A DNA stretch of 64,000 bases from Escherichia coli. GTDB taxonomy: Bacteria > Pseudomonadota > Gammaproteobacteria > Enterobacterales > Enterobacteriaceae. Under the pieces are notes generated by a model, which had not been told where the DNA came from, did no database searches, and saw only the letters and a program-made list of their open reading frames with translations. Location of the stretch: assembly GCF_024700885.2 (NCBI RefSeq), contig NZ_CP117016.1; one strand, written 5' to 3'. This document shows, piece by piece, positions 1,955 through 33,913 of the stretch; positions within the stretch are counted from its first letter, which is position 1; the number at the start of each line of letters is the position of its first letter. A program made the position numbers and the translations under genes.

Positions 1955-3499
1955 ATGTCGGTTTCTAAAAAACCTATGGTACTGGTGATTCTGGATGGCT
2001 ATGGCTATCGTGAAGAACAGCAGGATAACGCCATTTTTAGTGCTAAAACCCCGGTAATGGATGCACTGTGGGCCAATCGTCCGCATACCCTGATCGACGC
2101 TTCCGGTCTGGAAGTCGGTCTGCCTGACCGTCAGATGGGTAACTCCGAAGTAGGCCACGTTAACCTGGGTGCCGGCCGCATCGTGTATCAGGACCTGACT
2201 CGTCTGGACGTTGAAATCAAAGATCGCGCTTTCTTCGCTAACCCGGTACTGACTGGCGCGGTAGATAAAGCGAAAAACGCAGGCAAAGCAGTTCACATTA
2301 TGGGTCTGCTGTCCGCAGGCGGCGTACACAGCCACGAAGATCACATCATGGCGATGGTAGAACTGGCCGCTGAACGCGGCGCAGAAAAAATCTACCTGCA
2401 CGCATTCCTTGACGGTCGCGACACTCCACCGCGCAGTGCCGAATCCTCGCTGAAAAAATTCGAAGAAAAATTTGCCGCACTGGGCAAAGGCCGCGTAGCG
2501 TCCATCATTGGTCGTTACTACGCCATGGACCGCGATAACCGTTGGGATCGCGTTGAAAAAGCTTATGACCTGCTAACTCTGGCGCAGGGTGAGTTCCAGG
2601 CCGATACCGCCGTTGCTGGTTTGCAGGCTGCTTATGCTCGCGACGAAAACGACGAATTCGTGAAAGCGACCGTTATCCGTGCAGAAGGTCAGCCAGACGC
2701 GGCAATGGAAGACGGCGATGCGCTGATTTTCATGAACTTCCGTGCTGACCGCGCACGTGAAATCACTCGTGCATTCGTGAACGCTGATTTCGATGGCTTC
2801 GCGCGTAAGAAAGTGGTTAACGTCGATTTCGTGATGCTGACCGAATACGCCGCTGACATCAAAACTGCGGTTGCTTACCCACCCGCTTCCCTGGTTAACA
2901 CCTTCGGCGAGTGGATGGCGAAAAACGACAAAACTCAGTTACGTATTTCCGAAACCGAAAAATATGCCCACGTTACTTTCTTCTTCAACGGTGGCGTAGA
3001 AGAGTCGTTCAAAGGCGAAGATCGCATTCTGATCAACTCACCGAAAGTGGCTACCTACGATCTGCAACCGGAAATGAGCTCCGCAGAGCTGACCGAAAAA
3101 CTGGTTGCGGCAATCAAGAGCGGCAAATACGACACCATTATCTGTAACTATCCGAACGGCGACATGGTAGGTCACACCGGGGTGATGGAAGCGGCGGTTA
3201 AAGCGGTTGAAGCGCTGGATCACTGCGTGGAAGAAGTCGCGAAAGCAGTTGAGTCCGTGGGTGGACAACTGCTGATCACCGCTGACCACGGTAACGCTGA
3301 ACAGATGCGCGATCCGGCAACGGGTCAGGCACACACGGCACACACCAACCTGCCAGTTCCGCTGATTTATGTTGGTGATAAGAACGTGAAAGCGGTTGAA
3401 GGCGGCAAACTTTCTGACATCGCGCCGACCATGTTGTCGCTGATGGGTATGGAAATCCCGCAAGAGATGACTGGTAAGCCGCTGTTCATCGTGGAATAA
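1955..3499 (+). CDS. gpmI: 2,3-bisphosphoglycerate-independent phosphoglycerate mutase
   Basis: 514-aa product starting [17 protein letters not shown]; track ORF begins upstream in frame, start chosen by homolog N-terminus. Confidence 0.95.
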
Positions 3500-29027: not shown

Positions 29028-29744
29028 TCAGTTTGCCAGCGCCGCCTTCTGCGTCGCTACAATGGATTCGATTCCCCCTCGGGCCAGCGCCAACAAGGTG
29101 AGTAACTCTTCATGGGTGAACGGCTCGCCTTCTGCCGTCCCCTGCACTTCAATGATGCGCCCGTCTTCGGTCATCACTACGTTCATGTCGGTCTCTGCGG
29201 CTGAGTCTTCAACGTATTCCAGATCGCAAACCGCTTCGCCGTTCACAATTCCGACAGAAACTGCGGCTACCATCCCTTTCATCGGGTTGGTTTTCAGCTT
29301 GCCGTTTTCCACCAGCTTCTGTAGCGCATCTGCCAGCGCCACGCAGGCACCCGTAATCGACGCGGTACGCGTGCCACCATCGGCCTGAAGCACGTCGCAG
29401 TCCAGCGTAATAGTGAACTCACCCAGCGCTTTCAAATCTACTGCCGCGCGAAGAGCACGGGCGATCAGACGCTGGATTTCCATTGTGCGTCCACCCTGCT
29501 TACCTTTCGCTGCTTCACGCGCGTTACGGGTGTGGGTAGAACGTGGCAGCATGCCGTACTCTGCGGTGATCCAGCCCTGGCCCTGACCTTTCAGGAAGCG
29601 CGGCACGCCTTCTTCAATAGAGGCGGTACACAATACTTTGGTATCGCCAAATTCGACCAGCACCGAGCCTTCTGCATGTTTTGTATAGTTACGAGTCAGG
29701 GTAACGGGACGCACCTGATTATTGCTACGGCCTGCTGGACGCAT
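29028..29744 (-). CDS. rph: ribonuclease PH, full length
   Basis: 238-aa product from [14 protein letters not shown] with intact C-terminus. Confidence 0.93.
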
Positions 29745-29870: not shown

Positions 29871-30734
29871 ATGATCCGCAGTATGACCGCCTACGCCCGG
29901 CGTGAAATCAAGGGTGAATGGGGGAGCGCAACCTGGGAAATGCGCTCGGTAAACCAGCGTTATCTGGAAACTTACTTTCGTCTGCCGGAGCAGTTCCGTA
30001 GCCTTGAACCTGTCGTTCGCGAGCGTATTCGTTCTCGCCTGACGCGCGGTAAAGTGGAATGTACCCTGCGTTATGAGCCAGATGTTAGCGCACAAGGTGA
30101 GCTGATCCTCAACGAAAAACTGGCTAAACAGCTGGTAACTGCCGCGAACTGGGTAAAAATGCAGAGTGACGAAGGGGAAATCAACCCGGTTGATATTCTG
30201 CGCTGGCCGGGCGTGATGGCAGCCCAGGAGCAGGATCTCGACGCGATTGCTGCTGAAATTCTCGCGGCGCTGGATGGTACGCTGGACGACTTTATCATCG
30301 CACGTGAAACCGAAGGTCAGGCGCTGAAAGCATTGATCGAGCAGCGTCTGGAAGGCGTCACCGCCGAAGTGGTCAAAGTCCGCGCCCATATGCCGGAAAT
30401 CCTGCAATGGCAGCGTGAGCGTCTGGTCGCGAAGCTGGAAGATGCTCAGGTGCAACTGGAAAACAACCGTCTGGAGCAGGAGTTGGTTCTGCTGGCACAA
30501 CGAATTGACGTTGCCGAAGAACTGGACCGCCTCGAAGCGCATGTCAAAGAGACCTACAACATTCTGAAGAAAAAAGAAGCGGTTGGTCGTCGTCTGGACT
30601 TTATGATGCAGGAGTTCAACCGCGAGTCGAACACTCTAGCGTCGAAATCTATCAATGCCGAAGTGACGAATTCTGCCATCGAGCTGAAAGTGTTGATTGA
30701 GCAGATGCGCGAGCAGATCCAGAACATTGAATAA
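29871..30734 (+). CDS. yicC: YicC-family stress-induced protein
   Basis: 287-aa ORF matching YicC; conserved neighbour of rph. Confidence 0.9.
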   Translation: MIRSMTAYARREIKGEWGSATWEMRSVNQRYLETYFRLPEQFRSLEPVVRERIRSRLTRGKVECTLRYEPDVSAQGELILNEKLAKQLVTAANWVKMQSDEGEINPVDILRWPGVMAAQEQDLDAIAAEILAALDGTLDDFIIARETEGQALKALIEQRLEGVTAEVVKVRAHMPEILQWQRERLVAKLEDAQVQLENNRLEQELVLLAQRIDVAEELDRLEAHVKETYNILKKKEAVGRRLDFMMQEFNRESNTLASKSINAEVTNSAIELKVLIEQMREQIQNIE

Positions 30735-30894
30735 CTCGTAACGCCAATTCTTCCTTTTCAGCCTTCACAAATGCCGCCCACTCAAACAGAGCGGCATTTT
30801 TCCTCCCCGCAACATTCAATTCTGTTTTGCGTGCCTGCTCCAGATTTTGCGATGTTTTTTTGCCCAGCGCAGTGAGAAGGTGAGATACTCACAA

Positions 30895-30910
30895 CTGTAT
30901 ATAAACACAG
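30895..30910. promoter_or_regulatory. LexA (SOS) box CTGTATATAAACACAG upstream of the dinD remnant
   Basis: CTGT-N8-ACAG palindrome read from sequence about 45 bp upstream of the dinD start codon. Confidence 0.8.
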
Positions 30911-30955
30911 TTGTAAACTTACTTTCCTTGCAATCGATATCACATGGAGTGGGCA

Positions 30956-31233
30956 ATGAACGAACATCATCAACCTTTTGAAGAAATACGGCATTATGGC
31001 ACTGAAGGGCAAGAATTTTGGTCAGCGAGAGAATTGGCACCGTTACTGGATTATCGGGACTGGCGCAATTTTCAAAAGGTACTGGCCCGCGCGACTCAAG
31101 CGTGCGAAGCCAGTAATCAAGCTGCATCTGACCATTTCGTTGAAACCACCAAAATGGTTGTATTAAGTTGCCGACCCCGCAGGTCAGCATCAAGCAATTG
31201 GAAAACAGTGTAAAAATTACAGAGAAGAAATAG
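30956..31233 (+). pseudogene. dinD: dinD (DNA damage-inducible protein D) remnant with large internal deletion and frameshift
   Basis: First ~70 codons match DinD (MNEHHQPFEEIRHYGTEGQEFWSAREL...), then the frame is lost; a different frame at 31160-31233 encodes the DinD C-terminus (LPTPQVSIKQLENSVKITEKK*). About 280 bp retained versus ~825 bp for the intact gene. Confidence 0.8.
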
Positions 31234-31524
31234 CAGAAACGAAAAACTCTTTTTGTTGATTGAGATACCCGATGCGTAAGCCAAAGTCCAGGTGCGGTGA
31301 ACACAATGGCTAAACATTGCACCTTTCTTTTCCACCCCTCAATTTTAACCTATTTTTTCTTATGCATTTTCTCAGACAAGAAGTCAGAAGAATGCATCTA
31401 CGCTACAGAAAATAGCGATTTCACATAACTACAAGTTATCAATTTCCTCTCACCTTAAAAAATCTCAATCGTGACAATACGCACAAATCGCTACCCTGCC
31501 AGACAGATTTTTAGGGAGAGAACC

Positions 31525-33913
<2,389 letters not shown>

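Follow-up and report, generated by a model that had tools for sequence, protein, structure and literature searches.

The closest described counterpart of the locus analyzed here is the dinD (pcsA) gene of Escherichia coli itself. LexA binding and damage-inducible transcription of dinD have been shown in K-12, where it is among the most strongly induced of the SOS genes (PMC11002266). DinD is listed among the regulators of RecA in PMC4457935 and is reported to inhibit RecA filaments (Uranga et al. 2011, as cited there). PMC2577331 describes a dinD null as viable and without a growth phenotype, the sole classical phenotype coming from the pcsA68 allele, and that paper also describes a complementarity between dinD and tisAB RNA. 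Beyond the chromosome, DinD belongs to phrog_8036, with full-length homologues in phages and in streptococcal phage satellites; this distribution fits the view that dinD is a domesticated gene of mobile-element origin and is readily lost. A sequence search of the PDB returned no solved structure of a DinD relative. Two Campylobacter phage records (MG065691.1 and MG065686.1; H228 and H229) hold a full-length ORF that shares 84% identity with the DinD of E. coli, with all other phage matches at 63% or below. A DinD-like ORF is unexpected for this host, and the two records could reflect contamination or a recent transfer.

In the window, by which we mean the whole 64,000-nucleotide stretch of E. 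coli DNA that was analyzed, the gene order is rph–yicC–[dinD remnant]–yicG–ligB. The remnant lies between yicC and yicG and is colinear with intact alleles, which makes it the dinD orthologue by position. The neighboring genes are as follows.

29871–30734: yicC
31525–32142: yicG, with its ATG at 31525
32139–33827, minus strand: ligB

The rph gene is intact at 29028–29744 (RefSeq WP_001247093.1 in identical strains), as expected for a wild isolate, whereas K-12 has the frameshifted rph-1 allele. A canine strain from Scotland (1190) is 100% identical to the window over 30735–31525, and an O166:H15 isolate is identical over 6 kb. On the yicC side, two other strains have unrelated islands directly 3′ of the yicC stop, with the boundary near window positions 30723–30733; in both cases yicC itself lies outside the flank that was fetched. 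The island of P4 (L002, 1–1998) encodes a Doc-family toxin and a hypothetical gene, and that of AF10 (L010, 1–3932) encodes Abi and PerC genes. These islands mark the region 3′ of the yicC stop as an integration hot spot.

With respect to the described gene, the remnant shares the yicC–dinD–yicG site, the type of LexA box, the ribosome-binding site and the start, and its codons 1–70 and 254–274 are colinear with those of the intact allele of strain P4; it differs in lacking codons 71–252, in being frameshifted and in failing the cutoff of the DinD equivalog model. Other dinD nulls (the empty site of JJ1886, ISEc53 in AF10 and a prophage-like element in H2) resemble it in that intact DinD is abolished at the same locus. 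In contrast to these, the remnant has an untouched upstream control region, no foreign DNA and a clean internal deletion. Like phage BRO-N and anti-repressor (Ant)-like proteins, its N-terminal part matches Bro-N and phrog_8036, but it is a chromosomal fragment comprising approximately 60% of the domain. We consider it highly probable that the locus is a dinD pseudogene produced by one homology-independent 547-bp deletion, and that what is left is most likely a transcribed, functionless and LexA-repressed relic.

The extent of the lesion was established by a gapless comparison from both sides with the nearest intact allele, that of strain P4 (L002, dinD at 2222–3046); a MAFFT alignment was also made. 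Relative to P4, the window lacks exactly 547 bp (L002 2432–2978), corresponding to nt 211–757 of the coding sequence, or codon 71 through the first base of codon 253. Outside this gap, 785 of 791 positions are identical, with 6 mismatches. The same region in nearly all other genomes gives a two-piece match spanning approximately 1,337 bp, as opposed to 791 bp in the window. The pieces that result are listed here.

30956–31165, plus strand: dinD codons 1–70, the in-frame N-terminal part of the Bro-N domain, from the alignment to intact alleles
31165–31166, plus strand: deletion junction, with 547 bp (dinD coding nt 211–757) missing between the two bases and the same junction in 41 genomes
31166–31213, plus strand: out-of-frame tail of the remnant ORF, 15 codons (SCRPRRSASSNWKTV) followed by TAA, from translation
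31168–31233, plus strand: last 21 dinD codons and stop in the original frame (LPTPQVSIKQLENSVKITEKK, then stop), in the +2 frame and preceded by 2 leftover bases

A preliminary description of this DNA had proposed an internal deletion of roughly 550 bp that left the operator, the start and a short out-of-frame ORF, and had suggested alignment to intact dinD as the means of fixing its ends; the alignment bears out this proposal and supplies the endpoints. Two particulars of that description are revised. First, the two DinD pieces, thought to lie about 200 bp apart, are contiguous: the 5′ 210 nt of the gene are fused directly to its last 68 nt, such that codons 1–70 and the last 21 codons abut. 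Second, the change of frame is real, but it is no separate frameshift. Since 547 = 3 × 182 + 1, the deletion is sufficient to explain the new frame, without a second lesion. In agreement with this structure, tblastn of intact DinD against the window recovered the two pieces and nothing else, with residues 253–274 at 95% identity.

In terms of mechanism, the breakpoint is unique, with a single optimum at 31165/31166, and the junction reads …GGTTGTATTA directly followed by AGTTGCCGAC…. Microhomology at the junction, which had been put forward as something to look for, amounts to 0 bp in register, and the ends of the deletion carry no direct or inverted repeats. The nearby repeats GAACTTG (7 nt) and TTCAGG (6 nt) are displaced by 18–30 nt from the ends, and deletion mediated by microhomology or repeats was rejected together with them. 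The absence of in-register microhomology and of end repeats points to a homology-independent event and leaves slipped-strand or short-repeat recombination unsupported. A scar of an insertion sequence or other foreign DNA was likewise sought at the junction and not seen, the window being colinear with P4 on both sides. Neither a second dinD copy (tblastn and blastn) nor the deleted 547-bp segment was found elsewhere in the 64-kb window.

The preliminary description had named two circumstances that would undo its reading, namely sequence error and a gene that is naturally this short. The first would make the lesion an artifact of sequencing or assembly, through a collapse, a mis-assembly or a spurious frameshift. 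A missing piece of 547 bp is not a homopolymer slip, no flanking repeat is able to collapse an assembly at this place, and 41 complete genomes, sequenced independently, share the identical junction; we regard the chance of an artifact as negligible. The second would make the short form ancestral in this lineage, with the long gene arising elsewhere by insertion. That the whole tight clone to which the window belongs has the short form speaks for this view. Against it, more than 4,300 genomes have the full 274-codon gene, which is found on both N-terminal haplotypes, and full-length homologues exist in phages and satellites; moreover, in the short form a domain is interrupted and the genuine C-terminal codons are out of frame. 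An ancestral short form is accordingly very improbable, if not quite so remote as an artifact, and the deletion remains the preferred explanation.

What the remnant can encode follows from its start. The RefSeq dinD starts of P4, K-12 and strain 1190 all map to window position 30956, and from this canonical ATG the predicted product has 85 residues, 70 from DinD and 15 unrelated. A peptide of 89 residues had been proposed earlier; that length uses an in-frame ATG at 30944 that overlaps the Shine–Dalgarno sequence. The last 21 dinD codons are now beyond the reach of translation from the dinD start. Against the NCBIfam DinD equivalog NF008573 (approximately 274–288 positions, curated cutoff 242 bits), the remnant scores 107.8 bits over positions 6–81 of 288, well under that cutoff, while intact P4 DinD reaches 504.7 bits. 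With the Pfam Bro-N profile (PF02498), it scores 29.9–30 bits, above the gathering cutoff of 25.6 bits. The Bro-N match is incomplete nonetheless, covering profile positions 1–59 of 96 as compared with 1–88 in intact DinD; the peptide thus lacks some 40% of this domain as well as the entire C-terminal two-thirds of the protein. The frame is disrupted relative to intact orthologues, and we class the locus as a pseudogene on that basis.

The region upstream of the remnant is a different matter from the coding sequence. LexA operators follow the consensus TACTG(TA)5CAGTA, with a palindromic CTG-N10-CAG core. The signals in front of the remnant are as follows.

30860–30889, plus strand: putative dinD promoter, by inference only, with a −35-like TTGCCC (30860–30865), an 18-nt spacer and a −10-like GATACT (30884–30889)
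30893–30912, plus strand: LexA (SOS) box AACTGTATATAAACACAGTT, with the 16-mer core CTG-N10-CAG at 30895–30910 intact
30946–30949, plus strand: Shine–Dalgarno GGAG, 6 nt upstream of the canonical ATG

The box was judged by its matches to the consensus and by identity with strains that have an intact gene. It agrees with the consensus at 16 of 20 positions (17 of 20 for K-12 dinD) and retains both CTG and CAG, which qualifies it as a LexA operator. The 8 carrier sequences compared show no variation in it, and P4 has the identical box, while K-12 has T for C at 30906. The claim that the LexA box and start codon are intact therefore stands: the box, the GGAG and the ATG at 30956 are untouched, and the box and start region are the same as in the intact gene of P4. 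A 55-nt probe over this operator-type region matched 811 genomes (at most a few mismatches), as against only 41 carriers of the deletion, which identifies the window operator as a normal allele, as found in strains whose dinD is intact. The putative promoter region equals that of P4 except for a G/C difference at 30879. Its hexamers match consensus at 8 of 12 positions, under the scan threshold of 9 of 12, and a consensus promoter scan reported none.

Because these upstream signals are untouched, DNA damage should still de-repress a short transcript. On the strength of operator identity with intact-gene strains, we infer that LexA-controlled transcription of the remnant continues, repressed by LexA and induced by damage, and that the peptide has no function. 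SOS induction of a truncated peptide, as first proposed, is plausible judging from the DNA.

The same features can be read in favor of a retained functional element, which would be either an SOS-inducible 85-residue Bro-N fragment acting as a dominant RecA modulator or DNA-binding stub, or an SOS-inducible RNA carrying a tisAB site. The operator, the ribosome-binding site, the ATG and the open frame are kept in 8 of the 8 carriers examined, and the strong induction of dinD reported for K-12 (PMC11002266) implies that the promoter is a strong one. A stretch complementary to the tisAB RNA also survives 3′ of the junction.

31185–31200, plus strand: 16-nt stretch complementary to tisAB RNA (CAGCATCAAGCAATTG, one mismatch), from a pattern search

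However, only 59 of the 96 Bro-N profile positions remain, the retained codons have three substitutions (too few to show constraint), of which two are nonsynonymous, and the window's own sub-clone is mismatched in the tisAB-complementary site. This last difference is a G>A change at 31197 that is present in the window, strain 1190 and the O166:H15 isolate and absent from the other 5 carriers compared. Overall, we consider a functional remnant improbable, and we give the same slender chance to the intact SOS promoter still driving a meaningful product. The specific version in which an SOS micro-protein (85 residues, partial Bro-N) or a short RNA with the tisAB site would modulate the TisB toxin or RecA in carriers is a shade less likely again.

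Downstream, the remnant is followed by the spacer to yicG, in which the features below were placed.

31234–31524, plus strand: normal dinD–yicG spacer, as in intact strains by alignment
31290–31331, plus strand: candidate dinD terminator, a 10-bp hairpin (31290–31299 with 31315–31324) followed by UUCUUUU, weakly indicated by RNA folding

This interval had been given as 240 bp without a convincing ORF. The length is 291 bp from the old stop or 311 bp from the new one; the want of a convincing ORF is upheld, the longest plus-strand ORF being broken by a 2-bp indel in K-12. The last 174 bp of the spacer (31351–31524) are also present in genomes without dinD, where the BLAST match to the dinD-less site L011 resumes at 31351, and this part is consequently assigned to the yicG upstream region. 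The candidate terminator hairpin does not have a significant z-score, and a terminator scan did not report it. A structured RNA or small gene between the remnant and yicG was considered and rejected, as this spacer gave no Rfam match at E ≤ 1 and no consensus promoter or terminator, and the ORF is not conserved.

The junction is not private to the genome of the window: the deletion is fixed in a small strain group. With a 60-nt junction-centered probe, the identical junction was found as a single-piece, full-length match in 41 of 5,426 complete E. coli genomes; the figure of 53 obtained with an 80-nt probe is an overcount caused by joined two-piece matches. Carriers come from dog, chicken, human, pig, mink, mountain pygmy possum, ivory gull, soil, and lake and sea water, across several continents. 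Over the adjacent 8-kb gmk–spoT–recG stretch, 24 genomes show 100% identity to the window, and every one of them is a carrier; identity over that stretch reaches at most 98.8% beyond these 24. Other carriers include PCN033, O7:H15 ST70, O158:H23, VCSW7 and M114, which differ from the window by 38–82 SNPs in 6 kb, distributed block-wise. PCN033 belongs to phylogenetic group D (PMC4578781). Literature searches on O166:H15 and ST349 found nothing.

In public records, the remnant is already annotated as a pseudogene. RefSeq shows two pseudo fragments in each of the 7 carrier records that were fetched, and at all 41 junction matches the underlying features have the names of these two fragments, "BRO family protein, missing C-terminus" and "DNA replication protein DnaD, missing N-terminus". 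The DnaD label (RefSeq/PGAP; window 31166–31233, L001 2431–2499), seen in all carriers fetched, is misleading, as the fragment is really the out-of-frame 3′ end of dinD.

Variation among the carriers is sparse. Across 8 of them, the retained 70 codons show few substitutions, with two nonsynonymous changes (E3D and A24V) and one synonymous; at residue 80, in the tail, the window has N and other carriers have S, from the G/A difference at 31197. The 85-residue ORF is open in all 8 sequences, an observation of little weight given only 4 variable sites in the remnant. The codon changes would agree with relaxed constraint, although the numbers are small. The remnant is less diverse (approximately 14 variable sites per kb) than the flanking yicC (45 per kb), which is unlike the simple neutral decay of an old pseudogene and fits a younger allele with recombined flanks. 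Judged from these alignments, the simplest reading would be one old deletion, followed by recombination of the flanks or by transfer of the allele through homologous recombination.

Taken across the species, dinD is an approximately 1.16-kb presence/absence cassette and not a core gene. It is absent from 709 of the 5,426 complete genomes, including that of the ST131 strain JJ1886. At the dinD-less site, 77 bp of unrelated sequence (L011 4924–5000, corresponding to window 30735–31350) replace the cassette, and the loss in those 709 genomes takes dinD, its promoter and approximately 117 bp of trailer. The 547-bp segment missing from the window was found in 4,672 genomes, the flanking query matching 4,752, but at least 80% of it is covered in only 4,308; in up to 364 genomes the coverage is below 80%, and up to about 400 further genomes have dinD only in part. 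In total, dinD is absent or broken in approximately one-fifth of complete genomes.

Specific lesions of other kinds were seen in individual strains. In the blood isolate AF10 (L010 4115–6000), a 1.9-kb ISEc53 element (ISL3-like) with a ClbS/DfsB-family gene lies within the LexA box. Its insertion point corresponds to window 30899–30905, with ATATAAA duplicated on both sides, and the promoter and the left half of the operator are thereby cut off from dinD; the AF10 dinD is also annotated as frameshifted. One further matching genome (H29) shows the same match pattern as AF10. In H2 (L012 1–2501), the first ~660 nt of dinD have given way to a prophage- or satellite-like element with AntA/AntB, YlcI/YnfO and Icd-like genes; the breakpoint lies near coding nt 660, and 54 codons are left. 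Therein dinD may itself serve as an integration site.

The alignments also revealed two strongly divergent dinD haplotypes, the divergence being confined to codons 11–84, in the Bro-N domain. The block corresponds to window 30985–31165 and continues into the deleted part (L002 2252–2473 versus L003 2251–2472). Within it, the K-12 type and the type of the window and P4 share 47% protein and 55% DNA identity, as compared with approximately 97% in the flanks. By coverage, approximately 2,760 genomes have the window haplotype and approximately 2,000 the K-12 type. Such a pattern resembles that of an ancient replacement of the segment or of a balanced dimorphism.

With respect to how the remnant came about, we propose that an illegitimate deletion removed 547 bp from a P4-like dinD haplotype and shifted its frame. 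The junction is identical wherever it is found, which indicates that the event happened once; a single deletion would now be fixed in a small strain group (41 of 5,426), its flanking DNA having probably been reshuffled since by recombination within the carriers. With the promoter region, operator, ribosome-binding site and start untouched, DNA damage would de-repress a short transcript and with it the 85-residue peptide, which is most likely non-functional, and the locus would be decaying. The gene is dispensable: a viable null is described in PMC2577331, 709 genomes lack it and several hundred more have it incomplete.

As to significance, the remnant is an ordinary gene loss: many E. coli have no dinD or have it disrupted in other ways. 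The deletion is a lineage marker and one more loss of a non-essential, phage-derived SOS gene, and matters little alone; the wider pattern, in which dinD is absent or broken in about one-fifth of genomes and occurs in two N-terminal forms, is maybe more interesting than the deletion itself. The exact junction provides a clean diagnostic marker for the carrier strain group. As natural dinD nulls in which the SOS promoter is intact, the carriers could be used as natural controls in work on DinD function; the presence of DinD should not be assumed when SOS reporters or RecA regulation are studied in these strains.
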